64,000 nucleotides of DNA, taken from Escherichia coli (GTDB lineage Bacteria > Pseudomonadota > Gammaproteobacteria > Enterobacterales > Enterobacteriaceae). The stretch lies in NCBI RefSeq assembly GCF_013122565.1, contig NZ_CP053258.1; one strand, given 5' to 3'. Positions 11,012-64,000 of this stretch are shown one piece after another (the stretch's first letter is position 1; each line of letters opens with the position of its first letter). The notes below the pieces were generated by a model. It ran no database searches, had not been told where the DNA came from, and saw nothing but the letters and a program-made list of their open reading frames with translations. Position numbers and translations under genes: made by a program.

Positions 11012-11027
11012 CTGGATAAAAAAACAG
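11012..11027. promoter_or_regulatory. LexA (SOS) box in uvrB promoter
   Basis: ctggataaaaaaacag = CTG-N10-CAG SOS-box pattern upstream of uvrB. Confidence 0.8.
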
Positions 11028-12191: not shown

Positions 12192-12939
12192 GAGCAATCA
12201 CTCCCAAAAAAAGATGATAAGTCAGAGGGTATCGCCCCTGTTGTTGCGGCCAGGCCAGTTGCAACTGCTGTAGCTGAGAACGGGTTAATACCCGTGGGTC
12301 ACGCCCGTCGTGAAGATGCGTTGCACCAATGCCTTTGAGCGATCGCATGGCACTGAGCGCATCATCAAACCACAGCGTGATGGGCTGAATATGATGTTGA
12401 TAATGCACGCCGTTCAGCGACTGTTCGATTTCATCTGGTGGTAAAAAGCGATTAGCATGCGGGCGCTCGTCCACCGCCTGCCACGCCTGATGCAGTTCGG
12501 GTAACGATCCCTGCACCAGCGTGGTAAACGCGACCACGCCTCCGGGGCGCACCACCCGATACAGCTCGCGGAGTGCCGTGGATAAATTACCGCACCACTG
12601 CACCGCGAGATTGCTCCATGCCAGATCGAACGTCGCAGTCGCTAATGGCAGGGATTCGATATCTCCCGCCAGATAATGGTCTGCTGCATCCTTCTGGCGT
12701 GCCTGAATAAGCATTGGCGGCGAGAGATCTAACGCCGTCACCTGCGCGTGACGTTCCCGCCAATGACGGCTCATCCAGCCAGGTCCACAACCCGCATCCA
12801 GTACGTGGGTGTATTTACGCTGTGGGAGCATTGCCAGTAAGACGTCAGCACTCTGGCGCTGTAACTCTGCGTGTTGCTCATAGTGCGCGGCTGCCCGACC
12901 AAATGCCGCTGCAATGGCTTGTTTATTAACCGTTGCCAT
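12184..12939 (-). CDS. bioC: Malonyl-ACP O-methyltransferase BioC, 251 aa
   Basis: ORF 12184..12978 with start at [24 protein letters not shown]. Confidence 0.92.
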
Positions 12940-14080: not shown

Positions 14081-15117
14081 AGTGCTGCCGCGTTGTAATA
14101 TTCGTCAGTATCCGGGGTCATCAGTGCCTGTTCCAGACGCTGCTGTTGTTCGTTATCGCCCGCCAGCACGGCAGTTTGCTGCGGATTTAACCCCAGTTTG
14201 CGGAACAGTTGCAGGTCTTTATCTTCTTCCGGATTCGGCGTGGTCAGCAGTTTGCAACCGTAGAAAATCGAGTTTGCGCCTGCCATAAAGCACATCGCCT
14301 GAGTCTGTTCGTTCATCTGCTCGCGTCCGGCAGAAAGGCGCACGTAAGAGGTCGGCATCATGATCCGCGCTACGGCAATGGTGCGAATAAAATCAAAGGC
14401 ATCGACATCATCGTTATCTGCCAGTGGAGTACCTTTCACCTTCACCAGCATGTTGATTGGCACGCTTTCCGGCGGCGTCGGCAGGTTTGCCAGTTGCAGT
14501 AATAATCCAGCGCGATCTTTTACCGTTTCGCCTAAACCCACAATGCCACCTGAGCAAACTTTGATCCCGGCATCGCGCACTTTTTCCAGGGTATCAAGGC
14601 GTTCCTGATAAGTACGTGTGGTGATGATATTGCCGTAAAACTCCGGCGAGGTGTCGAGGTTATGGTTGTAGTAATCCAGCCCGGCGTTCGCAAGGCGCTG
14701 CGCTTGAGATTCACTCAACGTGCCCAGCGTCATACACGCCTCCAGCCCCATCGCTTTTACCCCCTGCACCATTTGTTCCAGGTACGGCATATCGCGTTCG
14801 TGGGGATTCTTCCACGCCGCGCCCATACAGAAGCGCGTCGATCCTGCCGCTTTCGCTTTGCGCGCCGACTCCAGCACCTGTTCAACTTCCATCAACCGCT
14901 CGGCTTCCAGCCCGGTTTTGTAGCGCGAGCTTTGCGGGCAGTATTTGCAATCTTCCGGACAAGCTCCGGTCTTAATCGACAGCAACGTGCTGACCTGCAC
15001 CTGACGTGGATCGAAATGCTGACGATGCACCTGCTGCGCTTCAAACAGCAGATCCAGCAACGGTTTTTCAAATAATTCTGTGACTTGCGACAATGTCCAG
15101 CGTGGGCGGTGAGCCAT
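14077..15117 (-). CDS. bioB: Biotin synthase BioB (radical SAM)
   Basis: 346-aa ORF; CPEDCKYC motif. Confidence 0.95.
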
Positions 15118-42371: not shown

Positions 42372-42447
42372 TGGTGGGTCGTGCAGGATTCGAACCTGCG
42401 ACCAATTGATTAAAAGTCAACTGCTCTACCAACTGAGCTAACGACCC
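42372..42447 (-). tRNA. lysQ: tRNA-Lys (UUU)
   Basis: Exact match to remembered E. coli tRNA-Lys including CCA; name by position next to nadA. Confidence 0.95.
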
Positions 42448-42480
42448 CTTGCGGGATTATGCTGCTTTAATCATTCAGGA

Positions 42481-42556
42481 TGGTGGGTCGTGCAGGATTC
42501 GAACCTGCGACCAATTGATTAAAAGTCAACTGCTCTACCAACTGAGCTAACGACCC
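42481..42556 (-). tRNA. lysZ: tRNA-Lys (UUU)
   Basis: Identical 76-nt copy. Confidence 0.95.
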
Positions 42557-42604
42557 ATACGGGTGTTACCTGAAAGATTTCTACTCGGAACCAATCTTTA
42601 AAAT

Positions 42605-42702
42605 TGGTGGGTCGTGCAGGATGACTCGCTTCGCTCGCCCTACGGGCCGTTGCTGGCGCAACGTTATCCTTCACGCTTAACATCTGAGTTTGATGTTAAA
42701 AC
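42605..42702 (-). repeat. Spacer repeat copy 1 (ends, in transcript sense, with a 17-nt copy of the tRNA-Lys 3' end)
   Basis: tggtgggtcgtgcagga then gactcgcttcgctcgccctacgggccgttgctg...; three near-identical copies in this operon. Confidence 0.7.
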
Positions 42703-42778
42703 TGGTGGGTCGTGCAGGATTCGAACCTGCGACCAATTGATTAAAAGTCAACTGCTCTACCAACTGAGCTAACGACCC
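42703..42778 (-). tRNA. lysY: tRNA-Lys (UUU)
   Basis: Identical 76-nt copy. Confidence 0.95.
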
Positions 42779-42781
42779 GAG

Positions 42782-42857
42782 TGGTGGGTGATGACGGGAT
42801 CGAACCGCCGACCCCCTCCTTGTAAGGGAGGTGCTCTCCCAGCTGAGCTAATCACCC
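42782..42857 (-). tRNA. valZ: tRNA-Val (UAC)
   Basis: 76 nt, recognised tRNA-Val (GGGTGATTAGCTCAGCTGGGAGAGCACCTCCCTTACAAGGAGG...CCA on minus strand). Confidence 0.93.
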
Positions 42858-42908
42858 GATACTGCGCTGGATACTACAAACTACTTCCACCGAACCCACC
42901 GTAATTAG

Positions 42909-43006
42909 TGGTGGGTCGTGCAGGATGACTCGCTTCGCTCGCCCTACGGGCCGTTGCTGACGCAACGTTATCCTACACGCTTAACATCTGTCTTCGATGT
43001 TAAAAT
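42909..43006 (-). repeat. Spacer repeat copy 2
   Basis: Same element as 42605-42702 with a few substitutions. Confidence 0.7.
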
Positions 43007-43082
43007 TGGTGGGTCGTGCAGGATTCGAACCTGCGACCAATTGATTAAAAGTCAACTGCTCTACCAACTGAGCTAACGACCC
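43007..43082 (-). tRNA. lysW: tRNA-Lys (UUU)
   Basis: Identical 76-nt copy. Confidence 0.95.
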
Positions 43083-43084
43083 GG

Positions 43085-43160
43085 TGGTGGGTGATGACGG
43101 GATCGAACCGCCGACCCCCTCCTTGTAAGGGAGGTGCTCTCCCAGCTGAGCTAATCACCC
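43085..43160 (-). tRNA. valT: tRNA-Val (UAC)
   Basis: Identical to the other Val copy. Confidence 0.93.
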
Positions 43161-43195
43161 GATACTACGCTGGATACTACAACTAACTATGTTAG

Positions 43196-43295
43196 TGGTG
43201 GGTCGTGCAGGATGACTCGACTTCGTCTCGCCCTTCGGGCCGTTGCTGACGCAACGTTATCCTTCACGTTTTACTACCGCTTCCACCTTAGCGCT
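43196..43295 (-). repeat. Spacer repeat copy 3
   Basis: Same element, slightly diverged (gactcgacttcgtctcgcccttcgggccg). Confidence 0.7.
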
Positions 43296-43371
43296 TGGTG
43301 GGTCGTGCAGGATTCGAACCTGCGACCAATTGATTAAAAGTCAACTGCTCTACCAACTGAGCTAACGACCC
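43296..43371 (-). tRNA. lysT: tRNA-Lys (UUU)
   Basis: Identical 76-nt copy; first gene of the operon. Confidence 0.95.
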
Positions 43372-49758: not shown

Positions 49759-50898
49759 TTAGTACAGAGAGTGGGTGTTACGTTCAATATCTTCTTTGGT
49801 GATACGACCGAACATTTTCCAGTAACACCAGGCGGTGTAGAGCAGAATGATCGGTACCAGAACCACCGCAACCCAGGTCATGACGTTAAGCGTCAGCTGG
49901 CTGGAAGTTGCATCCCACATTGTCAGACTTGCGTTCATCATGGTGCTGGACGGCATCACAAACGGGAACATTGCGATACCGGCAGTCAGGATGATGCAGG
50001 CCAGCGTCAGGGAGGAGAACACAAACGCCCACGCGGCTTTATCCATACGTGCAGTCAGGATGGTCAGCAGCGGCAGAACTACACCCAGTGCCGGAATAGC
50101 CCACAGAATTGGCGTGTTGTTGAAGTTAACCAGCCATGCGCCAGCTTCACGAACCACTACTTTATTCTGCGGGTTAGAGGCTGCGTAATGGTCCATTGTC
50201 GATTTCACGACATAACCATCGATACCGTACATCACCCATACGCCAGCCAGTGCGAAGCAGACCAGTGTCACCAGTGCCGCCACCTGAGCCGTTGCACGGG
50301 TACGCAGGTGCAGTTCGCCCACGGTACGCATTTGCAGATAGGTTGCGCCCTGAGTAATGATCATCCCTACGCTCACCACGCCTGCCAGCAGGCCGAACGG
50401 ATTAAGCAACTGAAAGAAGTTACCGGTGTAGTACAGACGCAGATATTCATCAACGTTGAACGGTACGCCCTGCAACAGGTTACCGAACGCTACACCAATT
50501 ACCAGCGGCGGAACGAAGCTACCAATGAAGATGCCCCAGTCCCACATGTTACGCCAGCGGGTTTCTTCAATCTTGGAGCGGTAGTCAAAACCGACCGGAC
50601 GGAAGAACAAAGACGCCAGCACGAGGATCATCGCCACATAGAAGCCGGAGAACGCAGCGGCATAGACCATCGGCCAGGCAGCAAAGAGTGCGCCGCCCGC
50701 GGTGATCAGCCAAACCTGGTTACCGTCCCAGTGTGGAGCAATGGAGTTAATCATAATTCGACGCTCGGTGTCGTTACGACCGAGAAAACGGGTGAGCATG
50801 CCCACCCCCATGTCGAAACCGTCAGTGACTGCAAAACCAATCAGCAGAACGCCAACCAGCAGCCACCAGATAAAACGCAATACTTCATAATCGATCAT
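49759..50898 (-). CDS. cydB: Cytochrome bd-I ubiquinol oxidase subunit II CydB
   Basis: 379-aa ORF, recognised. Confidence 0.96.
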   Translation of the reverse strand: MIDYEVLRFIWWLLVGVLLIGFAVTDGFDMGVGMLTRFLGRNDTERRIMINSIAPHWDGNQVWLITAGGALFAAWPMVYAAAFSGFYVAMILVLASLFFRPVGFDYRSKIEETRWRNMWDWGIFIGSFVPPLVIGVAFGNLLQGVPFNVDEYLRLYYTGNFFQLLNPFGLLAGVVSVGMIITQGATYLQMRTVGELHLRTRATAQVAALVTLVCFALAGVWVMYGIDGYVVKSTMDHYAASNPQNKVVVREAGAWLVNFNNTPILWAIPALGVVLPLLTILTARMDKAAWAFVFSSLTLACIILTAGIAMFPFVMPSSTMMNASLTMWDATSSQLTLNVMTWVAVVLVPIILLYTAWCYWKMFGRITKEDIERNTHSLY

Positions 50899-50913
50899 TT
50901 GACGACTCCTGTC

Positions 50914-52482
50914 TTAGCGTGCCGGCTGAGTAGTCGTGGAAGACTGCTCAAAGTGATAGCGACCGGTTTTCAGGCTGCTTGGGCCGAGGCGTGCAAACTT
51001 GAACATTAAGAACAATTCTGCCACCAGGAACAGGGTATACAGGCCGCAAATCAGCACCATTGAGAAGATGAGATCGCCTGCGGTCAGTGACGAGTTCGCC
51101 ACAGCTGTCGGCAGCACTTCACCGATAGCCCACGGTTGGCGGCCATATTCAGCCACGAACCAGCCCGCTTCTACAGCAATCCACGGCAGCGGAATACCGT
51201 ACAGCGCGGCGCGCAGCAGCCATTTTTTCTCGCCAATGCGGTTGCGGATGACACTCCAGAAAGAGAGCGCGATGATTGCCAGCAGCAGGAAGCCACACGC
51301 CACCATGATACGGAACGCGAAGTACAGCGGCGCTACACGCGGAATGGAGTCTTTGGTTGCCTGTTGAATCTGAGCTTCAGTCGCATCAGCCACGTTTGGC
51401 GTATAGCGTTTCAGCAGCAGACCGTAACCGAGGTCTTTCTTCATGCTATTGAACTGGTCACGAACCGCCTGGTCGGTAGAACCAGAACGCAGTTGTTCGA
51501 GCAGAGAGTAAGCCTTCATCCCGTTACGAATGCGTTCTTCATGCTGCACCATCAGTTCTTTCAGGCCGATAACTGGAGTATCCACGGAACGCGTTGCAAT
51601 GATGCCCAGCGCGTAAGGGATCTGGATCGCAAATTTGTTCGTCTCCTCTTCCTGATCAGGAATGCCGAACAGAGTAAAGGCAGCAGGCGCAGGTTGCGTT
51701 TCCCACTCGGCTTCAATAGCAGCCAGTTTGGTTTTCTGCACGTCGCCCATTTCGTAACCAGATTCATCACCCAGAACAATAACAGACAGAACGGCAGCCA
51801 TACCGAAGCTGGCAGCGATAGCAAAGGAGCGTTTAGCGAAGGCGAAGTCACGACCTTTCAGCATATACCATGCGCTGATACCGAGGATGAACATCGCGCC
51901 AGTCACATAACCAGACGCTACAGTGTGAACGAATTTCACCTGAGCAACCGGGTTAAGCACCAGCTCGGAGAAGCTCACCATCTCCATACGCATAGTTTCA
52001 AAGTTGAAATCGGACGCGATTGGGTTTTGCATCCAGCCGTTCGCAACCAGAATCCACAGTGCGGACAGGTTTGAACCGAGCGCCACCAGCCAGGTGACAC
52101 ACATATGCTGAACTTTACCCAGACGATCCCAACCGAAGAAGAACAGACCTACAAAGGTGGATTCGAGGAAGAAGGCCATCAGACCTTCGATTGCCAGCGG
52201 CGCACCGAAGATATCCCCTACATAGTGGGAATAGTAAGACCAGTTAGTCCCGAACTGGAACTCCATAGTCAGACCGGTAGCCACACCCAGAGCGAAGTTG
52301 ATACCAAACAACTTGCCCCAGAACTTGGTCATATCTTTATAAATCTGTTTGCCGGAAAGGACGTAGACCGTTTCCATAATGGCCAGCAGGAACGCCATAC
52401 CGAGCGTCAGTGGCACAAAAAGGAAGTGGTACATCGCGGTCAAGGCAAACTGTAAGCGCGACAGTTCGACTATATCTAACAT
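50914..52482 (-). CDS. cydA: Cytochrome bd-I ubiquinol oxidase subunit I CydA, 522 aa
   Basis: ORF 50914..52485, start at second Met ([20 protein letters not shown]). Confidence 0.96.
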
Positions 52483-52819
52483 CATGACTCCTTGCTCATC
52501 GCATGAAGACTCCGAGAGTGAACCCCGTTAGAAAGGGTCACACGCATGCCCCAATACAAAATTATTTGCTCGCCTCTATCGTTGCCATTTCATCAAAAGA
52601 GGAAAAGACAATGATAAAAAAGTTGCAAATATGTTAATGAATAAACCAAATTGATCCCGTAATTATATTACGCCGCAAAATCCTTACAATAAACAGGTTT
52701 TTATTGAGCAAATTTGCATTTTTCGACAGTGATCAATTTATAGCGAAATTGTCACGATCTCACCAATTTGATCTACGACAATTTATCGTGTTTTGCAGAT
52801 TTTTTTCAAGAATTAAAAA

Positions 52820-52833
52820 TTGATTTATATCAA
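52820..52833. promoter_or_regulatory. FNR-consensus palindrome in the cydAB upstream region
   Basis: ttgatttatatcaa = TTGAT-N4-ATCAA exactly, about 340 nt upstream of cydA; the cydAB promoter is known to be FNR/ArcA controlled. Confidence 0.7.
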
Positions 52834-53287
52834 AACTAACCAAATATGTTAATTATGTATAAACCATAGATCATTAGTGATTTTATTGTTAATTTATTGT
52901 GAAATATTTATGCAACACAATTATTACAATGAAAAGGTATAGATAAAAAACCAGTGTTGTATTTAACAGAACCGCCTTATCCACTTTTTATAATACCAAT
53001 TGATTAGAGTAGCCAATTTGTTGCTATTTTACATAACATATTTTTATCAAAGTTAATTGATTGTTGCCTTTATGAGCACCGACCGTAAGCCCGTTATGTT
53101 ATTGTTTCATTGGTAATAATCACTTAAATGTATCGATGGAACAGGTATGACTTAGCGGGAGTGATTGTTTCTGAGTGAACAGGGGCCACTTTTGCCTGAT
53201 AAATGAAAAATGAGCGATTTTTGCAAGTTAGTTTTTCTATAGCCGTGTACGCTCAGCGCCTCGCTTGATTACAATGAGGTTGCTGCT

Positions 53288-54232
53288 ATGAGTCCTGATA
53301 ATATCGGTTCGGCTGTCAATCGCTTCTCAGGTTGGCCATCTAATGATCCTCTAAAAACAGATAAAGAATCAACGACATCACCCGTGACAGTGCAGGTAAT
53401 AAAGATGATTGCCGCCATCCTTGACCCACATCGGATAGTCGTTGGAATCGATACACTTTATACAACGCAGCGCGAAACATTTACCTCAGAGAGTCAACAG
53501 CTCATTGAATCAGCATTGCAAACACTTCATGTGATGAATTTAAATAACCTGGAAACAAATCGCGATGAAGAAGGTCACTATCTGGCTTTTGAATATAACG
53601 TTGACACCTCTGACAGAATAACCGTTTCTGCTTACAATGAAAAAAATCCTGGCTGCTATGGCCAATGTCTTTTAATACAGGATGACGAAACAGACTTATT
53701 CAACCTGATAAAAATTAAAATTTTTGAAGCCAGGCATAATTATGTCGCTCAATTGATGAGCGATCCAGAATTTATGTTCAAATTCAGTTATAGCGCTCAA
53801 CAAAATAGATTAGAACCTCATCTTCTGGTTCCCGCTTATTTCCCTCTAAAAACAAACGAACCGGTTACGCAAGAGGATGTACTGTTACTTTATCGTTTCT
53901 TTAAAATGAATGATGATTTTAACAAATTAACATCAGATGAATACATGAGTATCCTGACACCTCTGATGAAGTGTGAGCGTAGCGTCCACGACAACAACAG
54001 GTATGTGACGGGCAAAGATACCCTTCTTCTGGACTATCCTCCTTCTGGTAACCAGATACATTTCCATGTTTTCCCTGACGAATCAGCAACACTAGTCCTT
54101 TATTTTTCAAACAATGACCTTGAATATTTCGTCTTTGAAAGAGATATTCCGAGCCAGTATCGCTTTTTCAAAATGTTTACCAATCTGGCACTGGTTATAG
54201 ATCAGTTAACCGAAGCCCATAAAATACTTTAA
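53288..54232 (+). CDS. Hypothetical protein (314 aa), AT-rich, no family recognised
   Basis: ORF track; GAGG RBS 7-10 nt upstream; soluble, Ser/Pro/Asn-rich N-terminus. Confidence 0.55.
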   Translation: MSPDNIGSAVNRFSGWPSNDPLKTDKESTTSPVTVQVIKMIAAILDPHRIVVGIDTLYTTQRETFTSESQQLIESALQTLHVMNLNNLETNRDEEGHYLAFEYNVDTSDRITVSAYNEKNPGCYGQCLLIQDDETDLFNLIKIKIFEARHNYVAQLMSDPEFMFKFSYSAQQNRLEPHLLVPAYFPLKTNEPVTQEDVLLLYRFFKMNDDFNKLTSDEYMSILTPLMKCERSVHDNNRYVTGKDTLLLDYPPSGNQIHFHVFPDESATLVLYFSNNDLEYFVFERDIPSQYRFFKMFTNLALVIDQLTEAHKIL

Positions 54233-54312
54233 TTTTCTATATATCCCTATGGCAAATATTGCTAAACAATGCCTGGGGATTAATTTTTATTACTCACGGA
54301 AAGATTTAAATA

Positions 54313-54735
54313 ATGATATCATCTCAGATCTCTTTCAGTACTCTTCCTGTCAATGCAACATACGCTTCAGAGACAACAGTTGACACACAAAAATTCTCTG
54401 ACATCCTCTACTCAGCGGGGTGTTCCCTAAAGGATATGGCTTATCTGAGCAGATGTCTGGCATCAATACACCCGACTATCGCCAAAAACATTTATGAAAC
54501 AGAAAATCTCAGCGATCAAAAATTACTGCATATTGATTGCCGTAGTACAAATGACATCAAGATAAATATCTTTTTTGGTCAGCAACGAGAAGGATTAATT
54601 GAAATTAGTTCTGACACAGTTATTTTTTCGATACTGTCTTCATTGATTGACTCCGCCATTTCTAAATTTCAACATCAAAACCCGGTTAACGGTTCAGTTA
54701 ATCCTGAACTATTGTATGAGGATTATACTGATTAA
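54313..54735 (+). CDS. Hypothetical small acidic protein (140 aa), AT-rich
   Basis: ORF track; 80 nt downstream of the 314-aa ORF on the same strand; Ser-rich N-terminus. Confidence 0.5.
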   Translation: MISSQISFSTLPVNATYASETTVDTQKFSDILYSAGCSLKDMAYLSRCLASIHPTIAKNIYETENLSDQKLLHIDCRSTNDIKINIFFGQQREGLIEISSDTVIFSILSSLIDSAISKFQHQNPVNGSVNPELLYEDYTD

Positions 54736-55281
54736 ATCCACCCTGTCGCGAAAAATGGCCTGCGTTATTGCCAGACGTAATAAAACCTTTGATTAACGTT
54801 ACTCATACTGATAGCACCTTCATGTACCTCTCTTTTTTACGCAAATCAAAAGAGCTAACGAAGGTCATAATTCGCATGAATCATTAACCATTTGTTATTT
54901 TCAACATTACTTTTACATTAAGCAGAAATGAATGGTAGTGAAATTCGACTTAAATTTTATGAAATGCATTTACTTATGGCTAAACCCATATCACTAAAAT
55001 GCAAATTAGAAGTAGATCACAAATATCTCAATACACCAAATCAAGTTAATTTTAAAAATTTAACATTCATGACATTAGTTGACATAACACACTGAATTAA
55101 CATGGAAATTTAAAAACACACTTTAAACAATCATTTCCCGAAAGACATTTTGAAAATAGATCAATTGCAACATTACGGTCAGATAAAGACACTCCTGTGA
55201 TATTAAACCTGTGCCGTTATGAACGGCCATAAATACGACGTGTGTAACTTATTTTACTCTCTGTCTTACAAAGGATTACCC

Positions 55282-55731
55282 ATGAAGAAAGCAACACTTG
55301 TGATTGGCGTTATTGGCGCGGACTGCCATGCAGTAGGCAATAAAGTTCTGGACCGCGTTTTTAGCAACCACGACTTCAGAGTCATTAATCTGGGCGTAAT
55401 GGTCAGCCAGGACGAATATATTGATGCTGCCATTGAAACTGGCGCTGACGCGATTGTCGTCTCCTCTATCTATGGGCATGGCGATATCGACTGTCTGGGC
55501 ATGCGCGAACGCTGCATCGAGCGTGGACTGGGGGACATCCTGCTCTATGTGGGCGGTAACCTGGTGGTAGGAAAACATGACTTCGCTGACGTGGAAAACA
55601 AGTTCAAAGAGATGGGATTTGATCGCGTCTTTGCCCCAAGTCATGACTTAGAAGAGGTTTGTCAGCTGATGGCCCACGATATCAACCAACGTCATGACGT
55701 TGATACTCGCATTCTTGAAGAGGCAATCTGA
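55282..55731 (+). CDS. glmS: Glutamate mutase (methylaspartate mutase) S / sigma subunit, B12-binding, 149 aa
   Basis: ORF 55219..55731 with start at [22 protein letters not shown] (cobalamin-binding DxHxxG-type motif); family assignment from recognised conservation. Confidence 0.85.
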
Positions 55732-57119
55732 TGCAAATCGTCTCTGTCGATATTGGATCGACGTGGACCAAAGCAGCCCTCTTCACCCGGGAGGGGGACG
55801 CGTTAACGTTGGTTAACCACGTACTGACCCCAACCACCACCCATCATCTGGCGAAGGGGTTTTTCTCCAGCCTGAACCAGGTGTTAAACGTAGATAATGC
55901 CCTCCCCCTGTTAAACAGCGGTGAGGTTGCATTGAAGTATTCCTCCTCTGCCAAAGGTGGGCTGGCGGTTGCCGCAATGGGATTGGTGCCTTCTATCACC
56001 CTGGAAACCGCGAAAGTAACCGCTCACTCTGCGGGTGCTAAAATTGCGCAATATTACGCCTACAAGCTGAACCGCCGTGATATCCAGGCACTGGAAGAAA
56101 CGCAGCCCGATATTCTCTTGTTCACCGGCGGCACCGACGGCGGAGAAGAAAGCTACGGACTGAATAACGCCCGTGTGCTGGCAGAATCCAAACTCGACTG
56201 CGCCATTATTTATGCCGGAAACCGGGATATTCAGGACGAGGTGCAGGAGATCCTCGGACATAAAGACCTGACCATCGTCGACAACGTTCTGCCCGATCTT
56301 GACCATCCGAACCCTTTAGCCGCACGCCAGGCTATCTGCGACATATTCCTTAAACGCATCGTTAAAGGGAAAGGGCTGGATGTCATTGTTGATAAAACAG
56401 GCGAAGAACCAATGCCGACACCATGGACGGTCTTTGAACTGGTTAAGGCAATCAGTAACGTCGATCACAGCTGGAAAGAGTTCATGCTGATCGACATGGG
56501 CGGCGCAACCACCGATGTCTATTCCGCCTGTGCCAACACGCTCTCGCCCGACACCGTTTTACACGGCGTACCGGAACCCTTCGTAAAACGGACGGTGGAA
56601 GGCGATCTGGGAATGCGCGTCTCGGCAATGGTGGTTGGTGAAAGTGCGAAAGAGTTAGTCAATGTAAATTTTGCTCAGCAACCCGCACAGCTGGACGCTT
56701 TTTATCATTACCTCCGTCATTTAGTCGCTCATCCCGACTACTTACCCGCGAATGCAGAAGAAAAATATTTCGATACCGTCCTGGCCGGACTGTGTGTGGG
56801 TTATGCCACCGAAAGACATGCGGGCACCAAAAAAGAGGTCTGCACCTGCGTCGGCAATGTCGATTTACAAATGGGACGTGACCTGACAACCGTGCGTAAA
56901 GTCGTCGGATCCGGCGGATGGCTCTCGCGTGCCAGTCAGTTCGATATGCATCACTGGTTGAAATACCGCGAGTTAAACGACGACGGTAAACGCATTCTCT
57001 TACCGACCGAATTTGAATATTACCGCGATTCCCGGGGGCTATTACCACTGCTGGCAAACGTCGCCAGAGTCGATCCGCTGGCCGCCGCGCGCACCAGTAT
57101 TCAATGCTTAACCCTATAA
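55731..57119 (+). CDS. glmL: Glutamate mutase-associated protein GlmL/MutL (ASKHA-like)
   Basis: 462-aa ORF between S and E subunit genes ([18 protein letters not shown]); start shares one nt with the preceding stop. Confidence 0.75.
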   Translation: MQIVSVDIGSTWTKAALFTREGDALTLVNHVLTPTTTHHLAKGFFSSLNQVLNVDNALPLLNSGEVALKYSSSAKGGLAVAAMGLVPSITLETAKVTAHSAGAKIAQYYAYKLNRRDIQALEETQPDILLFTGGTDGGEESYGLNNARVLAESKLDCAIIYAGNRDIQDEVQEILGHKDLTIVDNVLPDLDHPNPLAARQAICDIFLKRIVKGKGLDVIVDKTGEEPMPTPWTVFELVKAISNVDHSWKEFMLIDMGGATTDVYSACANTLSPDTVLHGVPEPFVKRTVEGDLGMRVSAMVVGESAKELVNVNFAQQPAQLDAFYHYLRHLVAHPDYLPANAEEKYFDTVLAGLCVGYATERHAGTKKEVCTCVGNVDLQMGRDLTTVRKVVGSGGWLSRASQFDMHHWLKYRELNDDGKRILLPTEFEYYRDSRGLLPLLANVARVDPLAAARTSIQCLTL

Positions 57120-57137
57120 CAATTAAGGCTGCAATCA

Positions 57138-58583
57138 ATGGAACTTCGAAATAAGAAATTAACCCATGACGAATTCATGACCGAGCGGCAACAGGTACTG
57201 AAAACCTGGGAAACCGGCAAGGATGTTGAAAATTTTGAAGATGGCGTTAAATACCAACAAACCATTCCTGAGCATAAACGCTTCTCTCTCGCCCTGCTGA
57301 AAGCAGACAAGGAAGGTAAAACCCTTAGCCAACCGCGCGCAGGTGTGGCGCTGATGGACGAACACATCGAACTACTGAAAACACTACAAGAAGAGTGCGA
57401 TCTGCTGCCAAGCACCATCGATGCATATACCCGTCTGAATCGGTACGAAGAAGCGGCTGTAGGGATTAAAAAATCCATCGAAGCCGGAACCTCTAAACTG
57501 AACGGTTTACCGGTAGTTAACCACGGAGTCGCAGCTTGCCGTCGCCTCACCGAAACCCTGCAAAAACCGCTACAGATCCGCCACGGCACGCCAGATGCGC
57601 GTCTGCTGGCTGAAATCTCGATGGCCAGTGGCTTTACCAGTTACGAAGGCGGCGGCATTTCCTACAACATTCCGTATGCCAAACGCGTAACGCTGGAAAA
57701 ATCGATCCGCGACTGGCAGTACTGCGACCGTTTAATGGGGATGTATGAAGAACACGGGATCCGCATCAACCGCGAACCATTTGGCCCACTAACGGGTACG
57801 CTGATCCCGCCGTTTATCTCGCACTCTATCGCCATAATCGAAGGCTTGCTGGCGCTGGAACAGGGTGTGAAATCTATCACCGTTGGTTATGGCCAGGTCG
57901 GCAGCCTGACGCAGGATGTTGCGGCGATCCAGTCTCTGCGTGAACTTGCACATGAATACTTTCAGAGCTATGGCTATACCGACTATGAATTAAGTACCGT
58001 GTTTCACCAGTGGATGGGCGGCTTTCCGGAAGACGAATCGAAAGCGTTCGCTATTATCTCCTGGGGCGCAGCCGTCGCGGGGATGTCTGGTGCCACCAAA
58101 GTCATCACCAAAAGTCCGCACGAAGCCTGGGGTATCCCAACTGCCGCTGCCAACATTCAGGGGCTGAAAGCCTCCCGCCAGATGCTCAACATGGTCAATG
58201 AGCAGAAATTCCCGCCATGCCCTGCGGTTGAACTGGAAATTGAACTGATTAAGAGCGAGGTTCGCGCGGTACTGAATAAAGTGTTCGAACTGGGTAATGG
58301 TGATATTGCGCGCGGTACGGTGCTGGCATTTGAAGCGGGCGTACTGGATGTGCCGTTTGCGCCAGCCGCCTGCAACGCGGGCAAAATTCTTCCGGTCCGT
58401 GACAACACCGGCGCGATACGCGTACTGGAAGCCGGAGCCGTTCCATTGCCAAAAGATATTCTCGACCTCCACCACGATTACGTTGCGGAACGCGCACGCT
58501 GTGAAGGACGCCAACCGACATTCCAGATGGTTGTAGATGACATCAATGCTGTATCCCACAGTAAATTAATAGGAAGACCATAA
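57138..58583 (+). CDS. glmE: Glutamate mutase (methylaspartate mutase) E / epsilon subunit
   Basis: 481-aa ORF, characteristic size and position. Confidence 0.8.
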   Translation: MELRNKKLTHDEFMTERQQVLKTWETGKDVENFEDGVKYQQTIPEHKRFSLALLKADKEGKTLSQPRAGVALMDEHIELLKTLQEECDLLPSTIDAYTRLNRYEEAAVGIKKSIEAGTSKLNGLPVVNHGVAACRRLTETLQKPLQIRHGTPDARLLAEISMASGFTSYEGGGISYNIPYAKRVTLEKSIRDWQYCDRLMGMYEEHGIRINREPFGPLTGTLIPPFISHSIAIIEGLLALEQGVKSITVGYGQVGSLTQDVAAIQSLRELAHEYFQSYGYTDYELSTVFHQWMGGFPEDESKAFAIISWGAAVAGMSGATKVITKSPHEAWGIPTAAANIQGLKASRQMLNMVNEQKFPPCPAVELEIELIKSEVRAVLNKVFELGNGDIARGTVLAFEAGVLDVPFAPAACNAGKILPVRDNTGAIRVLEAGAVPLPKDILDLHHDYVAERARCEGRQPTFQMVVDDINAVSHSKLIGRP

Positions 58584-59824
58584 TGAAAATAAAACAGGCC
58601 CTGTTCACCGCTGGCTATTCCTCATTCTATTTCGATGACCAGCAGGCGATAAAAAACGGAGCGGGTCACGACGGCTTTTTTTATACCGGGGAGCCAGTAA
58701 CACAGGGGTTTAACGCCGTACGTCAGGCCGGGGAGTGCGTATCGGTACAGTTGATTCTGGAAAACGGCGCGGTCGCTGTAGGTGACTGTGCTGCCGTACA
58801 GTATTCCGGGGCAGGTGGTCGCGATCCACTGTTCCTCGCAGAGCACTTTATTCCGTTCCTCAACGACCATATTAAGCCATTACTGGTAGGCCGCGATGTG
58901 GATACTTTCCTGCCGAATGCCCGTTTCTTCGACAAATTGCGTATTGACGGCAACTTGCTGCATACCGCCGTGCGCTACGGATTATCACAGGCGCTGCTTG
59001 ATGCTACCGCGCTGGCAACCGGCCGTCTGAAAACTGAAGTGGTCTGTGATGAATGGCAGTTGCCACGCGTGGCGGAATCCATTCCATTATTTGGTCAGAG
59101 CGGCGACGATCGATATATCGCCGTCGATAAGATGATCCTTAAGGGCATCGACGTGCTGCCCCATGCGCTGATTAATAACGTCGAAGAGAAGCTGGGCTTT
59201 AAAGGTGAAAAACTGAGCGAATATGTCCGCTGGTTGTCGGATCGCATTCTAAGCAAGCGCACCAGCGCGCGCTACCACCCTACCCTGCACATCGATGTAT
59301 ACGGCACTATCGGTCTGATCTTCGATATGGATCCGCTCCGCTGTGCGCAATACATCGCCAGCCTGGAAAAAGAAGCGCAAGGCCTGCCGCTCTACATCGA
59401 AGGGCCGGTCGATGCCGGTAACAAGCCCGATCAAATTCGCCTGCTGACCGCGATTACCAAAGAGCTGACGCGCCTCGGTTCCGGCGTGAAAATTGTGGCC
59501 GATGAATGGTGTAACACCTACCAGGATATTGTTGATTTCACTGATGCTGCCAGTTGTCACATGGTGCAAATCAAAACCCCGGATCTGGGCAGTATTCACA
59601 ACATCGTCGATGCGGTTCTTTACTGCAACAGCCACAGCATGGAAGCGTACCAGGGCGGCACCTGCAATGAAACTGATGTCAGTGCCCGCACCTGTGTCCA
59701 CGTCGCCCTTGCCGCTCGCCCTATGCGTATGCTGGTAAAACCAGGGATGGGCTTTGACGAAGGCCTCGATATCGTCTTCAACGAAATGAATCGTACTATC
59801 GCGCTGTTGCAGGCTAAGGATTAA
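58583..59824 (+). CDS. Methylaspartate ammonia-lyase (enolase superfamily)
   Basis: 413-aa ORF (MKIKQALFTAGYSSFYFDDQQAIKNGAGHDGFFYTGEP...), directly after the mutase genes. Confidence 0.8.
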   Translation: MKIKQALFTAGYSSFYFDDQQAIKNGAGHDGFFYTGEPVTQGFNAVRQAGECVSVQLILENGAVAVGDCAAVQYSGAGGRDPLFLAEHFIPFLNDHIKPLLVGRDVDTFLPNARFFDKLRIDGNLLHTAVRYGLSQALLDATALATGRLKTEVVCDEWQLPRVAESIPLFGQSGDDRYIAVDKMILKGIDVLPHALINNVEEKLGFKGEKLSEYVRWLSDRILSKRTSARYHPTLHIDVYGTIGLIFDMDPLRCAQYIASLEKEAQGLPLYIEGPVDAGNKPDQIRLLTAITKELTRLGSGVKIVADEWCNTYQDIVDFTDAASCHMVQIKTPDLGSIHNIVDAVLYCNSHSMEAYQGGTCNETDVSARTCVHVALAARPMRMLVKPGMGFDEGLDIVFNEMNRTIALLQAKD

Positions 59825-59827
59825 CAA

Positions 59828-61198
59828 ATGGCTCGTTCTTTTAAAGTCTTATCGCCAACGGCAATCCTCGGGTATGGATTCCCGGAAGAGAGCTTCCGCA
59901 AAGCGATGGCAGAATCGCCCGATCTGATCGCCGTTGATGCCGGCTCTTCCGATCCAGGCCCCCACTACCTCGGGGCAGGCAAACCGTTTACCGATCGCGC
60001 AGGGGTCAAGCGCGATCTGCGCTATATGATCACCGCAGGCGTGCAAAATAATATACCGGTGGTGATCGGAACGGCTGGCGGTTCTGGTGCCGCACCACAC
60101 CTGGAGTGGTGCCGAGAAATAATTCATGAGATTGCCCGGGAAGAGCACCTCTCGTTCTCGATGGCGTTGATCCCGGCAGACGTTGACAAAGCCATCGTCC
60201 ACCAGGCGCTGGATAACGGCAAAATCACGGCGCTGGATTTTGTCCCGCCGTTAACCCACGACGCGATTGACGAAAGTACGTATATCGTTGCGCAAATGGG
60301 CATCGAACCCTTCCAGCGGGCTCTGAAAGAAGGCGCGCAAGTGGTGCTGGGCGGGCGCGCTTACGACCCGGCCTGCTTTGCTGCGCTCCCGATCATGCAA
60401 GGCTTTGATGAAGGTCTGGCGCTGCATTGTGGGAAAATCCTTGAGTGCGCAGCAATCGCCGCAACGCCCGGCTCAGGCTCTGACTGTGCGATGGGCATCA
60501 TTGATGACAACGGCTTTACGCTGAAGACATTTAATCCGAAGCGTAAATTTACCGAAACGTCAGCAGCTGCACACACACTGTATGAAAAATCCGATCCCTA
60601 CTTCCTGCCAGGACCTGGCGGCGTGTTGAACCTGAAAGGCTGCACATTTAAAGCAGTCAATGACGGCGAAGTCTACGTCAGCGGTTCTAAGCATGAAGAA
60701 ACGCCGTATGCCCTGAAACTGGAAGGTGCACGACGGGTGGGCTTCCGCTGTCTGACCATCGCCGGAACGCGCGACCCGATCATGATCGCCGGGATCGATA
60801 AAATCATCGATGAAGTCAAAATCAGCGTTTCGCGTAACCTGTCGCTTGACGATGACAGCATTCGCATCAATTTCCACCTGTACGGCAAAAACGGGGTGAT
60901 GGGCGACCATGAACCGATGCAAACTACCGGGCATGAGCTGGGGATTGTCCTTGATGTAGTTGCACCGACCCAGGAAATTGCCAACAGCGTTTGCTCGCTG
61001 GTGCGCTCTACCATGCTGCACTACGGCTATGAAAACCGCATCGCTACCGCAGGCAACCTGGCGTTCCCGTTCTCCCCTTCTGATATCCAGGGCGGGCCGG
61101 TATACGAATTTTCCATATATCACCTGATTGAAGCCAACGACGCTCTGCGTTTTGATTTCCATATTGAACAGGTGACGCCAGAAGGAGTTCAGGTATGA
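59828..61198 (+). CDS. DUF1446 (AtuA-like) family protein, function unknown
   Basis: 456-aa ORF; family assignment from memory of conserved N-terminal region; unverified. Confidence 0.55.
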   Translation: MARSFKVLSPTAILGYGFPEESFRKAMAESPDLIAVDAGSSDPGPHYLGAGKPFTDRAGVKRDLRYMITAGVQNNIPVVIGTAGGSGAAPHLEWCREIIHEIAREEHLSFSMALIPADVDKAIVHQALDNGKITALDFVPPLTHDAIDESTYIVAQMGIEPFQRALKEGAQVVLGGRAYDPACFAALPIMQGFDEGLALHCGKILECAAIAATPGSGSDCAMGIIDDNGFTLKTFNPKRKFTETSAAAHTLYEKSDPYFLPGPGGVLNLKGCTFKAVNDGEVYVSGSKHEETPYALKLEGARRVGFRCLTIAGTRDPIMIAGIDKIIDEVKISVSRNLSLDDDSIRINFHLYGKNGVMGDHEPMQTTGHELGIVLDVVAPTQEIANSVCSLVRSTMLHYGYENRIATAGNLAFPFSPSDIQGGPVYEFSIYHLIEANDALRFDFHIEQVTPEGVQV

Positions 61199-61512
61199 AA
61201 CAGTCAATTGTCTCACTGGCGCAAGTCATTCGTTCGAAAAATGCCGGTCCTTACGAACTGGTTTTAGATATTTTATTTAAAACGAAAGAAAACTATGAGC
61301 GAGTTAAATCATCAGGGCAATTAACCCCAGAACTGATTGCGCGCTTATATCATGTTGAACCTGACTTTATTCATCGTATTGTCTGGTTTGATCCTTCTAA
61401 CGCAGTAAAAATCGTCATGCCACGAGATATTATCTCCGGGAATGTAGGTGACAATGATGTCTATGGTGCACAGCAACATGCACCTTTATTAAATATGAGT
61501 TTCGATTTGTAA
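61195..61512 (+). CDS. Small protein (105 aa), likely DUF4387 partner of the DUF1446 protein
   Basis: Start overlaps the upstream stop by 4 nt (ATGA), which is direct evidence of tight gene coupling; family name from memory. Confidence 0.5.
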   Translation: MKQSIVSLAQVIRSKNAGPYELVLDILFKTKENYERVKSSGQLTPELIARLYHVEPDFIHRIVWFDPSNAVKIVMPRDIISGNVGDNDVYGAQQHAPLLNMSFDL

Positions 61513-61672
61513 AAATCCGAACACTTTTAGCCAACTGACATCCCATCACTTATTGCAGTTCAACACTTCAGCTATTTGTAAGGTTGTAATAGCAGGTAGA
61601 TGCCTGAGTCTCTATTCAGGCATCTACTTCTCCTGATTCTGATTTATCGCCGTGCACCTGATGGAGGAAAAA

Positions 61673-62953
61673 ATGAAGAAAATAAGTTTAACCACGATGA
61701 TTCTTTTGGCGCTGGTACTTGGAATGATTATCGGCGTAGTGCTCAATAACACTGCTTCACCGGAAACCGCAAAACTCTATGCGCAAGAAATATCGATATT
61801 CACGACGATTTTCTTACGACTGATAAAAATGATTATCGCTCCGTTAGTGGTCTCTACCCTGGTGGTAGGTATAGCTAAAATGGGCGATGCCAAAGCCCTT
61901 GGTCGTATTTTTTCTAAAACACTTTTTTTATTTATTTGCGCCTCATTGCTGTCAATTGCCTTAGGCTTGATAACAGTAAATTTCTTCATGCCAGGCACAG
62001 GAATTAATTTTGTTGCACACGGAGCCGAAACCACCGGAGTGGTCGCGTCAGAACCCTTTACGCTAAAAGTATTTATTTCGCATGCTTTCCCCACCAGCAT
62101 TGTCGATGCCATGGCGCACAATGAAATTTTGCAAATCGTGGTGTTCTCAATTTTCCTCGGCTGTAGCCTGACGGCGATTGGCGAGAAAGGCAGCGCCATC
62201 GTTCACGCCTTAGATTCGCTGGCACATGCCATGTTAAAGCTCACTGGCTACGTCATGCTCTTCGCTCCCCTGACCGTATTCGCCGCTATTTCAGCATTGA
62301 TTGCTGAACGAGGACTGGCAGTTATGGTGAGCGCCGGGATCTTTATGGGTGAATTTTATTTCACCATGTTGTTACTTTGGGTACTGCTTATCGGTCTGGC
62401 CATCGTTTATGTCGGCCCCTGCATCAGACGCCTGACCCGCGCCCTTTCGGAACCCGCCCTGCTGGCATTTACCACATCCAGTTCTGAAGCGGCTTTTCCG
62501 GGAACGCTTGAAAAACTGGAGCAATTTGGCGTTTCCCCCAAAATTGCCAGCTTTGTCTTACCCATTGGCTACTCATTTAATCTCGTTGGATCAATGGCCT
62601 ACTGCTCCTTCGCCACAGTTTTCATCGCCCAGGCCTGCAATATCCATTTATCCATCGGTGAGCAAATCACCATGCTGTTGATCCTGATGTTGACCTCGAA
62701 AGGAATGGCTGGCGTACCACGCGCCTCAATGGTGGTTATCGCCGCCACGCTCAACCAGTTCAATATTCCGGAAGCAGGGCTGATCTTGCTGATGGGCGTT
62801 GATCCGTTCCTTGATATGGGGCGTTCCGCGACAAACGTCATGAGCAACGCAATGGGCGCTGCGATGGTGAGTCGGTGGGAAGGCGAACATTTCGGCGAGG
62901 GCTGTCGGGGTAAAGCATTAAAACCCAATGAATCGAACGTTGCTCTGCCCTGA
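61673..62953 (+). CDS. Dicarboxylate/amino acid:cation symporter (DAACS, GltP-like), probably glutamate/aspartate uptake
   Basis: ORF 61652..62953; start chosen at ATG 61673 with GGAGG RBS; polytopic membrane protein with GltP-family character. Confidence 0.8.
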   Translation: MKKISLTTMILLALVLGMIIGVVLNNTASPETAKLYAQEISIFTTIFLRLIKMIIAPLVVSTLVVGIAKMGDAKALGRIFSKTLFLFICASLLSIALGLITVNFFMPGTGINFVAHGAETTGVVASEPFTLKVFISHAFPTSIVDAMAHNEILQIVVFSIFLGCSLTAIGEKGSAIVHALDSLAHAMLKLTGYVMLFAPLTVFAAISALIAERGLAVMVSAGIFMGEFYFTMLLLWVLLIGLAIVYVGPCIRRLTRALSEPALLAFTTSSSEAAFPGTLEKLEQFGVSPKIASFVLPIGYSFNLVGSMAYCSFATVFIAQACNIHLSIGEQITMLLILMLTSKGMAGVPRASMVVIAATLNQFNIPEAGLILLMGVDPFLDMGRSATNVMSNAMGAAMVSRWEGEHFGEGCRGKALKPNESNVALP

Positions 62954-63060
62954 GGGGGATCTTAAGCAATCAGAAGCCAATGACTACGCATTTTTATAAG
63001 CCGGATCATGAAGTTAGACGGCAATTAAGTAACACTAACGTTTAAGGTGAAAAGTGAAAT

Positions 63061-64000
63061 ATGTCCAAACCATTTATCTGGCAAGAACCGTTTCTACAAA
63101 ATAAAGACGGTACAGAATATACATTAATTAGCGATCAACATATTACAGTAACGGAATTAGACGGCGAAGAAGTGATAAAAATCGCTCCTGAAGCATTAAC
63201 GCTGCTTGCCCGGCAGGCATTTTATGAAGCCTCTTTTTTCTTACGTTCCGCTCATTTGCAACAGGTCGCCAGCATTCTTAACGATCCGCAGGCCAGTAGT
63301 AATGATAAATACGTTGCGTTGCAGTTATTACGTAATGCTGAAGTCTCAGCAAAAGGGGTATTACCCAACTGTCAGGATACCGGCACCGCAACTATTGTTG
63401 CCAGGAAAGGGCAACAGATATGGACCGGAGGTAACGACGCTGAAGCCTTAAGCAAAGGCATTTACACCACTTTCCAGGAAAATAATCTGCGCTTTTCACA
63501 AAATGCGCCGCTGGATATGTATACCGAAGTCAATACGCAAACCAATCTCCCGGCGCAGATTGATATCAGCGCCGTCGCTGGTGATGAGTACCATTTTCTC
63601 TGTGTTAATAAAGGGGGCGGCTCCGCCAATAAAGCCACGCTTTATCAGGAAACCAAATCCTTATTGCAACCAGAAAAACTGACCGCATTTTTAATCGAAA
63701 AAATGAAATCGCTGGGCACCGCTGCCTGCCCGCCTTACCACATCGCCTTTGTCGTCGGAGGGCTTTCAGCCGATCAAACCTTAAAAGTTGCCAAGCTGGC
63801 TTCTACGAAATATTACGACAATTTGCCCACCAGCGGAAACGAGCAGGGACAAGCATTCCGTGATATTGAGCTGGAAAAAGTGATGCTCGAGGCCAGTCAG
63901 CAATTTGGTATTGGTGCGCAATTTGGGGGTAAATATTTCGCTCATGATATTCGCGTCATTCGTCTGCCGCGTCACGGTGGCTCCTGCCCGATAGCTATGG
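63061..64000 (+). CDS. fumD: Class I fumarate hydratase paralog (FumA/FumB-like; mesaconase/fumarase FumD-type), 3' end beyond window
   Basis: Hand translation from ATG 63061, open to the window end: [23 protein letters not shown]...CQDTGTA...GGGSANKA...[12 protein letters not shown], collinear with FumA; not in ORF track because truncated. Confidence 0.8.

Follow-up and report, generated by a model that had tools for sequence, protein, structure and literature searches.

The window (the whole stretch of 64,000 nucleotides analysed here) ends in what is very probably a horizontally acquired catabolic island that encodes the whole methylaspartate (mesaconate) pathway. The gene cluster in it was known before: Kronen & Berg described it in 2015 (PMC4682846), and the first-pass annotation had also called it a known system, reported in E. 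coli O157:H7. It marks the stretch as a strain-variable metabolic island. The DUF1446/DUF4387 protein pair of the cluster matches the citramalate lyase CmlAB. Because this is the step that was not found by Kronen & Berg (2015), the match suggests that the cluster encodes the entire route to pyruvate and acetate. The features of the island within the window are the following:

52859..53287, no strand: non-coding DNA at the left junction of the island, 34% GC and thus AT-rich, placed by K-12 blastn and GC content
53288..54232, + strand: hypA, orphan ORF, 314 aa, 39% GC, 'hypothetical protein' in RefSeq
54313..54735, + strand: hypB, orphan ORF, 140 aa, 37% GC
54736..55281, no strand: intergenic region upstream of glmS, 546 bp, AT-rich (32% GC)
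55282..55731, + strand: glmS, predicted small, B12-binding subunit of glutamate (methylaspartate) mutase, 149 aa
55731..57119, + strand: glmL (mutL), predicted accessory/reactivating protein of the mutase, 462 aa
57138..58583, + strand: glmE, predicted catalytic subunit of the mutase, 481 aa
58583..59824, + strand: mal, predicted 3-methylaspartate ammonia-lyase, 413 aa
59828..61198, + strand: cmlA, predicted large subunit of an AtuA/DUF1446-type citramalate lyase, 456 aa
61195..61512, + strand: cmlB, predicted small subunit (DUF4387), 105 aa
61673..62953, + strand: dicarboxylate/amino acid:cation symporter of the DAACS/SDF family, 426 aa when started as in the RefSeq orthologue
63061..64000, + strand: fumD, predicted class I (Fe-S) fumarase/mesaconase, 550 codons of which the window end leaves the first 313

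Location and boundaries of the island

Comparison of the window with the K-12 locus by blastn showed that K-12 homology extends as far as 52858; the start of cydA (52485, - strand) is 373 bp away, cydA pointing away from the island, and this places the left edge of the island at approximately 52859. The cluster had been described as starting at 55282, the coordinate of the glmS ATG; the cluster was confirmed, but the island begins approximately 2.4 kb upstream of that position. As the same annotation had stated, the cluster is absent from K-12, which has mngR-mngA-mngB at this locus; the island takes their place between cydA and sucD. To the right of the island, relatives carry either sucD or an rtcB-containing insert. 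Judging from the gene layout in the relatives O157 and L010-L015, the remainder of fumD, cobO and a gene for a LysR regulator would lie beyond position 64000. Hence, the earlier description is inaccurate in one word, 'complete': in the window, fumD is cut and the last two genes fall outside. Between 55282 and 64000 the genes are tightly packed on the + strand, with starts and stops that overlap or abut. All of these genes are free of internal stops, and the complete genes have the same lengths as their O157 orthologues.

The AT-rich region upstream of glmS (54736..55281) is the presumed promoter/regulatory region of the operon, and glmS is preceded by an AGGA ribosome-binding site located 8 nt before the ATG. 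No B12 riboswitch or other Rfam family was detected between 52000 and 64000 at E<=1. A σ70 promoter scan was not enriched (11 promoter-like sites versus 18.8 expected from shuffles), and an intrinsic terminator scan gave 13 terminator-like sites versus 12.5 expected. On these counts, we do not claim promoter or terminator sites. Neither hypA nor hypB matched a family in NCBIfam, Pfam, PADLOC or PHROGs. hypA is present in 1138 of the 5426 complete E. coli genomes and accompanies the island in all carriers; its dN/dS against O157 is 0.26, and HypB shares 95.0% amino acid identity with its O157 counterpart (dN/dS 0.21). In a tblastn search against plasmids, hypA and hypB matched only E. coli copies, in records of 0.73 to 4.9 Mb, two of them chromosome-sized. 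These AT-rich orphan ORFs could be part of the control of the island. We also considered hypA as the counterpart of the conserved P-loop ORF of 313 to 318 aa that follows cmlB in distant loci, and discarded this because the two show no similarity (E=2.8).

The glutamate mutase and the methylaspartate ammonia-lyase

The 3 proteins GlmS, GlmL and GlmE and the methylaspartate ammonia-lyase exceeded the cut-offs of curated equivalog models, matched homologues of solved structure and are colinear with the O157 cluster, in line with their earlier identification. GlmS scored 253 bits with NF002612 (cut-off 110) and 246 bits with TIGR01501, also above the cut-off. It carries the base-off/His-on motif DxHxxG as D14-C-H16-A-V-G19 and is 61% identical to 1I9C_A, in which D14, H16 and G19 are conserved. 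GlmL, whose gene stands between those of the two subunits (order glmS-glmL-glmE), scored 895 bits with TIGR01319 and 511 bits with NF040745 (cut-off 475), and is 99.6% identical to O157 GlmL. GlmE scored 866 bits with TIGR01503 (cut-off 390) and aligned over its full length with 6H9E_B/1CCW_B at 58.5% identity. Its residues R67, R99, R148, E170 and Y180 correspond to R66, R100, R149, E171 and Y181 in Clostridium cochlearium numbering, all of them conserved; we take Arg66, Arg100 and Arg149, with Glu171 and Tyr181, to be the substrate-binding set described in the 1CCW literature. By homology, glmS-glmL-glmE is thus a glutamate mutase (EC 5.4.99.1), predicted to catalyze the AdoCbl-dependent interconversion of glutamate and methylaspartate.

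Mal scored 544 bits with TIGR01502 (cut-off 286) and is 93.2% identical to 1KKO_A, the crystallised Citrobacter amalonaticus enzyme, and 56% identical to 1KCZ_A. It conserves Q172, H194, D238, E273, D307, Q329, K331, T360, C361 and L384 at identical positions. Among these, Lys331 and His194 are presumably the catalytic bases, and Asp238, Glu273 and Asp307 the Mg2+ ligands, along with Gln329 (C. tetanomorphum numbering). On this evidence, mal is predicted to be a 3-methylaspartate ammonia-lyase (EC 4.3.1.2) of the enolase superfamily. The mutase and lyase ORFs therefore align with characterised enzymes and conserve every catalytic residue that we checked.

The DUF1446/DUF4387 pair matches citramalate lyase

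The domain assignment of the pair in the first-pass annotation was verified (AtuA PF07287 and DUF4387 PF14330 in Pfam); its function, which had no name at that point, can now be predicted as that of a citramalate lyase. CmlA is 91.9% identical to chain A of 9ERQ in a full-length alignment of proteins of equal length (456 aa), and its predicted fold superposes on 9EVF_A with a TM of 0.90. CmlB matches 9ERQ_B, 'Citramalate lyase, subunit B (cmlB)', with E=5.2e-57 and 84.6% identity, again at equal length (105 aa). The titles of the 9ERQ and 9EVF entries are 'Citramalate lyase - AMPPNP - citramalate complex' and 'Citramalate lyase - ADP - pyruvate complex'. We did not find a primary paper on CmlAB in the literature searched, and the assignment rests on these PDB titles together with a preprint in which cmlAB of Raoultella planticola was used (bioRxiv 10.64898/2026.01.16.699985). 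In that work, FumA and CmlAB alone gave engineered E. coli mesaconate-dependent growth. Compared with the enzyme of 9ERQ and 9EVF, the pair described here has the same two subunits, the same lengths and high identity, and the E. coli-type allele is predicted to share its activity.

Gene order agrees with this assignment. The start of cmlB overlaps the stop of cmlA by 4 nt, and mal is immediately followed by cmlAB in the window as well as in O157 and on a Salmonella plasmid. Four distant loci with a CmlA of only 62% to 66% identity were examined; the order glmS-glmL-glmE-mal-AtuA-DUF4387 is kept in 3 of them, one from Candidatus Rifleibacterium amylolyticum, and a class I fumarase is encoded nearby in 2 of the 3 distant loci with cmlAB downstream of mal. 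The pair thus matches citramalate lyase CmlAB as the last step of the pathway, with a predicted conversion of (S)-citramalate to pyruvate and acetate. The bound ATP or ADP may be used catalytically by CmlAB for the C-C cleavage, for example via an acyl-phosphate. On the same reading, other lyases need a thioester for a cleavage of this kind.

FumD and the symporter

Residues 1 to 313 of FumD scored 710 bits with NF011921 (profile positions 1–313 of 550) versus 530 bits with the FumA model, and this visible part is 98.1% identical to its O157 orthologue, in line with the earlier description of a FumA-like hydratase. The C-terminal domain (Fumerase_C; the PRK15392 type consists of Fumerase and Fumerase_C) is visible only in relatives. 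FumD of O157:H7 is a characterised mesaconase that prefers mesaconate 2- to 3-fold over fumarate (PMC4682846). The activities of both FumD and CmlAB have been shown elsewhere for orthologues.

The symporter had been annotated as glutamate-type. Its membership in the DAACS family stands, and PF00375 is present in its orthologues. It scored 314 bits with the DctA model (cut-off 513) and 304 bits with the GltP model NF008440 (cut-off 638). Because both scores are below the cut-offs, the 'glutamate-type' label is an assumption. An identification as the GltP glutamate/aspartate:proton symporter was rejected for the same reason, the score being under the curated equivalog cut-off.

Distribution and selection

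The cluster is carried by 1135 of the 5426 complete E. coli genomes (approximately 21%), O157 included, consistent with the earlier view of a known system on an accessory metabolic island. It is also found on a conjugative Salmonella plasmid, in a version with an additional glutaminase gene, glsA. Comparison with O157 proteins, which had been proposed as a check, gave 98% to 100% identity for the cluster proteins in colinear order, and at the nucleotide level the window is 98.3% identical to the O157 strain over 17.9 kb. The best match among the 5426 complete genomes was 98.9% identical in the cluster and 98.5% in the neighbouring core genes, and the nearest genome found (GCA_052983875.1) was 99.74% identical. 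Over the eight cluster genes, dN/dS against O157 was 0.069; glmE alone had 21 synonymous and 0 non-synonymous changes. Inside the cluster we detected a 3-kb recombination patch, which indicates ongoing allele exchange of intact genes. The genes are intact also in O157, L010-L015 and the plasmid copies. What the analysis shows for this cluster is thus which genes it contains, that their catalytic residues are intact, that synteny is kept and that selection on it is purifying.

Comparison with related systems

With the O157:H7 glm-mal-fumD cluster (PMC4682846) the island shares genes, gene order and chromosomal site, and the differences are allelic only. The clostridial methylaspartate pathway has the same chemistry in its first 3 steps, and GlmE, GlmS and Mal are 56% to 61% identical to the crystallised clostridial proteins, with the same active-site residues. 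In C. tetanomorphum and C. cochlearium, the pathway genes are mutS-mutL-mutE, mal, mesAB and those for a citDEF-type citramalate lyase. Whereas the clostridial mesaconase is the two-subunit MesAB, that of the island is a single-chain FumA-like protein, and the acyl-carrier-protein-dependent CitDEF-type complex of the clostridial last step has an unrelated AtuA/DUF4387 lyase in its place. CitDEF-type genes (alpha, beta, gamma/ACP) and CitC/X/G were absent from the 52.8–64 kb region, the O157 island and L010-L015, which rules out a CitDEF-type citramalate/citrate lyase.

The haloarchaeal methylaspartate cycle continues via mesaconate CoA-transferase, mesaconyl-CoA hydratase and beta-methylmalyl-CoA lyase. 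None of these 3 post-mesaconate enzymes, which are named in PMC5592240, is encoded here. The haloarchaeal cycle was rejected because its defining genes are absent, and this indicates that the island serves catabolism and does not form a cycle of the anaplerotic kind. On the K. pneumoniae plasmid pHNLC3, an overlapping AtuA and DUF4387 pair shares one operon with genes for a fumarate hydratase and a LysR regulator. However, the pHNLC3 AtuA is only 56% identical to CmlA, and the operon contains four dehydrogenases and neither mutase nor ammonia-lyase; this pair presumably acts on a different hydroxy-acid.

Proposed pathway and alternative readings

L-glutamate would be imported, probably by the DAACS symporter, and converted to (2S,3S)-3-methylaspartate by adenosylcobalamin-dependent GlmS2E2, which GlmL would reactivate and for which the cobO adenosyltransferase encoded just past the window would supply the coenzyme. 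To our knowledge, E. coli is unable to make B12 de novo. Methylaspartate ammonia-lyase would then release ammonia to form mesaconate, the Fe-S hydratase FumD would add water to give (S)-citramalate, and the two-subunit CmlAB would cleave citramalate to pyruvate and acetate (or activated acetate). The divergent LysR regulator past the window probably controls expression. With CmlAB named, the conversion of glutamate to pyruvate, acetate and NH3 would be genetically complete, which closes the gap left in 2015. For the operation of the pathway in the organism, the substrate of the symporter and the regulatory logic, we infer this scheme from the genes. In O157:H7 ATCC 700728, no condition was found that expressed the cluster genes, glutamate did not support growth of the strain whether cobalamins were added or not, and methylaspartase activity was absent (PMC4682846). 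Because of this lack of expression under the conditions tried, the in vivo function in E. coli is only predicted.

The real substrate might instead be an external C5-dicarboxylate (mesaconate, citramalate or methylaspartate) and not glutamate, with the symporter, FumD and CmlAB as the core and the mutase branch used only when corrinoids are available. The symporter does reach a slightly better score with DctA, the C4-dicarboxylate model, than with GltP, and is below both cut-offs; FumA and CmlAB sufficed for the mesaconate-dependent growth of engineered E. coli; and AtuA, DUF4387 and fumarate hydratase recur without glm or mal on Klebsiella plasmids, so a hydratase-lyase module exists alone. 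However, intact copies of glmSLE and mal head the operon and evolve under strong purifying selection, and glsA on the Salmonella plasmid points to a glutamine/glutamate feed, which makes a replacement of glutamate by such a substrate quite improbable. We give even less credence to the proposal, raised by Kronen & Berg, that glutamate is converted to mesaconate or (S)-citramalate as a secreted end product (e.g., acting on the host), with AtuA/DUF4387 otherwise employed. Citramalate lyase activity was indeed not detected in O157:H7 extracts, but these expressed no cluster at all and methylaspartase was also undetectable; moreover, the two proteins are 92% and 85% identical to those of a citramalate lyase that was crystallised with bound citramalate and pyruvate, and AtuA/DUF4387 directly follows mal in distant lineages. 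Finally, AT-rich DNA is the kind bound by xenogeneic silencers, and the AT-rich DNA (32% to 39% GC) upstream of the operon, together with the lack of expression and phenotype in the one strain tested, might suggest a silent, decaying relic with no present function in E. coli, but the intactness of all genes here, in O157, L010-L015 and the plasmid copies, the low dN/dS, the retention in more than a thousand complete genomes and the exchange of intact alleles make this barely credible.

The symporter-FumD-CmlAB half may work as a stand-alone module consuming external C5-dicarboxylates such as mesaconate or citramalate. Mesaconate is formed from itaconate in activated macrophages, and if such a module operates, the island would be relevant in the inflamed gut and not in classical glutamate fermentation. 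That this half is self-sufficient, that the nucleotide of CmlAB is catalytic and that the orphan ORFs take part in control is, as a combination, rather unlikely. The remaining question is physiological, namely which signal, substrate and corrinoid supply switches the island on, and whether it benefits gut colonisation.

RefSeq names the pair 'acyclic terpene utilization' protein, and in some records '3-methylaspartate ammonia-lyase'. For annotation, an AtuA/DUF4387 pair beside mal should be named citramalate lyase CmlAB.

Gene content of the glutamate mutase cluster

Eight tightly spaced ORFs on the plus strand run from position 55282 to the window end, preceded by two orphan ORFs.

53288-54232, +, orphan ORF, 314 aa (37-39% GC for the two)
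54313-54735, +, orphan ORF, 140 aa
55282-55731, +, glmS, whose ATG is the start of the cluster in the first-pass annotation
55731-57119, +, glmL
57138-58583, +, glmE
58583-59824, +, mal (methylaspartate ammonia-lyase)
59828-61198, +, cmlA (AtuA/DUF1446 gene)
61195-61512, +, cmlB (DUF4387 gene)
61673-62953, +, symporter
from 63061, +, fumD (class I fumarase), cut by the window end at codon 313

At several junctions the start abuts or overlaps the preceding stop, as expected of a single operon. The cluster had been called complete, which holds for glmS through the symporter but not for the truncated fumarase, and approximately 2.8 kb of the island lies past the window end.

GlmS, GlmL, GlmE, and Mal scored well over the curated cut-offs of their NCBIfam equivalog models. 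GlmE aligned over its full length with the Clostridium cochlearium enzyme (6H9E/1CCW, 58.5% identity), GlmS with 1I9C_A (61%), and Mal with the enzymes of Citrobacter amalonaticus (1KKO, 93.2%) and C. tetanomorphum (1KCZ, 56%). Mapping onto these solved structures showed that D14-x-H16-x-x-G19 of GlmS, R66, R100, R149, E171, and Y181 of GlmE, and Q172, H194, D238, E273, D307, Q329, K331, T360, C361, and L384 of Mal are all conserved; these residues have catalytic or ligand-binding roles in 1I9C, 6H9E/1CCW, and 1KKO/1KCZ. Equivalog scores and, for GlmS, GlmE, and Mal, alignments with enzymes of solved structure thus agree with the mutase, GlmL, and ammonia-lyase identities proposed from the sequence; neither a failed alignment nor a lost catalytic residue, either of which would have refuted them, was observed. 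The FumA-like hydratase proposed alongside them is a class I fumarase fragment (313 residues) that scored 710 bits with NF011921 versus 530 with the FumA model and is 98.1% identical to its O157 orthologue. FumD of O157:H7 is a mesaconase, mesaconate being favoured 2-3 fold (Kronen & Berg 2015, PMC4682846). The symporter does belong to the DAACS/SDF family, but its annotation as glutamate-type is an assumption, its score being under the cut-offs of the GltP and DctA models alike.

Assignment of the DUF1446/DUF4387 pair to citramalate lyase

The main addition to the earlier account, in which the DUF1446/DUF4387 pair was present without a function, is that sequence matches make a function assignable: the pair is a predicted citramalate lyase, CmlAB. 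The DUF1446 protein matched chain A of 9ERQ/9EVF, "Citramalate lyase, subunit A (cmlA)" (E=5.5e-291, 91.9% identity), and the DUF4387 protein chain B, "subunit B (cmlB)" (E=5.2e-57, 84.6% identity). Of these structures, released in October 2025, one is entitled "Citramalate lyase - ADP - pyruvate complex", the other "Citramalate lyase - AMPPNP - citramalate complex". In addition, a preprint on engineered E. coli obtained growth on mesaconate via FumA that depended on cmlAB of Raoultella planticola (bioRxiv 10.64898/2026.01.16.699985). The assignment would close the pathway gap left in Kronen & Berg 2015, the missing enzyme having been structurally solved since 2025.

The cluster most likely encodes a four-step route from glutamate to pyruvate and acetate, putative in E. 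coli. GlmSE with AdoCbl would convert glutamate to (2S,3S)-3-methylaspartate, GlmL acting as reactivase; Mal would take off ammonia to give mesaconate, FumD would hydrate this to (S)-citramalate, and CmlAB would split citramalate into pyruvate and acetate. In O157 and other relatives, cobO (cob(I)yrinic acid a,c-diamide adenosyltransferase) comes next in the operon, followed by a divergent LysR regulator gene, and CobO would provide the coenzyme form of the cofactor. O157:H7 ATCC 700728 did not grow on glutamate, cobalamins did not help, and methylaspartase activity was undetected (PMC4682846).

CmlA relatives number in the thousands, and we sampled four loci with CmlA only 62-66% identical. 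Three of the four, one from Candidatus Rifleibacterium amylolyticum, have the order (GntR)-glmS-mutL-glmE-mal-AtuA-DUF4387, two of these with a class I fumarase nearby; the fourth (Accumulibacter) has the AtuA/DUF4387 pair alone. This conserved order independently supports the putative place of CmlAB in the pathway. Directly 3' of cmlB, the distant loci L003 (10712-11665), L005 (10677-11618), and L006 (10698-11654) share a 313-318 aa ORF with a Walker-A P-loop, GAEGxGKSTLI (62% identity between L003 and L005), that matched no Pfam family and has no counterpart in the enterobacterial cluster. Since ADP or AMPPNP is bound in the CmlAB crystals, this ORF might conceivably have an accessory role linked to nucleotides. 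A 56% identical AtuA/DUF4387 pair belongs to an operon at 5952-15048 of the K. pneumoniae plasmid pHNLC3 locus (IncFII/IncR Klebsiella plasmids); the operon also encodes a fumarate hydratase, a LysR regulator, glucose 1-dehydrogenase, alcohol dehydrogenase, and two aldehyde dehydrogenases, and it lacks both mutase and ammonia-lyase genes. Such a composition points to a module of hydratase and AtuA-type lyase redeployed on another substrate.

Borders, distribution, and divergence of the island

Comparison with the K-12 locus showed that homology ends at window position 52858, 373 bp upstream of cydA, placing the island start approximately 2.4 kb ahead of the glmS start. K-12 has mngR-mngA-mngB between sucD/sdhX and cydA, and O157 has a 13,967-bp segment in place of 5,929 bp of K-12. 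The part of the island that separates glmS from the region upstream of cydA holds the two AT-rich orphan ORFs and, just ahead of glmS, a 546-bp stretch of 32% GC. The orphan ORFs had no matches in NCBIfam, Pfam, PADLOC, or PHROGs, adjoin the cluster at every locus examined, and are more diverged than its genes (dN/dS 0.21-0.26). Of 5426 complete E. coli genomes, 1138 have their segment and 1135 the cluster, in agreement with the 26.5% carriage reported in 2015 (PMC4682846). In Salmonella Macclesfield, a conjugative IncFIB plasmid of 416 kb has the entire cluster with an additional glutaminase gene and with transposase genes on its flanks, which supports horizontal mobility. The earlier observation is confirmed and its interpretation as an accessory metabolic island, found in O157:H7 and absent from K-12, is supported; the cluster is an ordinary member of an island described in 2015. 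Residual interest lies in its physiological trigger and in CmlAB chemistry.

All cluster genes are intact here and in each relative examined. Against an O157 strain, the eight genes differ by 79 synonymous and 18 non-synonymous changes (dN/dS 0.069), glmE by 21 and 0, respectively, which together with their intactness counts against a decaying relic. The 5426 complete E. coli genomes reached at best 98.9% identity to the cluster and 98.5% to neighbouring core genes. The nearest sequence found, GCA_052983875.1 (L013), has 99.74% identity over 17.3 kb and no differences at all in 50288-57232. Between 52859 and 64000 it shows 37 mismatches, one at 63637 and 36 inside the 3 kb of 57614-60586 (glmE-mal-cmlA), which looks like a homologous-recombination import within the operon. 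The alignment with L013 splits into two overlapping pieces at tolA (L013 507-1868; window ~46.2-47.6 kb), TolA having 453 aa in this relative versus 421 in O157-like genomes, consistent with repeat-number variation in its central domain. Past the window end, in the nearest genome (21124-21389 of L012 and L013), an RtcB-family gene follows the island LysR regulator where O157 has sucD, and the window's lineage may carry an extra insertion between island and sucD.

Other features of the window

On the minus strand, 42372-43371 holds a tandem array of seven tRNA genes (five tRNA-Lys UUU and two tRNA-Val UAC), corresponding to the K-12 lysT-valT cluster adjoining tol-pal; this array accounts for the several BLAST places per genome in the core-gene comparison. 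Positions 1-4000 are very AT-rich (30% GC in 1-2000, 42% in 2001-4000) and may be another accessory segment, with the following genes in it and beside it.

4714-5166, -, moaE
3873-4658, -, YbhL/BAX-inhibitor-like gene
3025-3729, 2242-2955, and 1520-2371, -, three further similar-looking multi-pass membrane ORFs, adjoining the preceding two genes
1134-1538 and 587-1057, -, two small AT-rich ORFs, after the membrane ORFs
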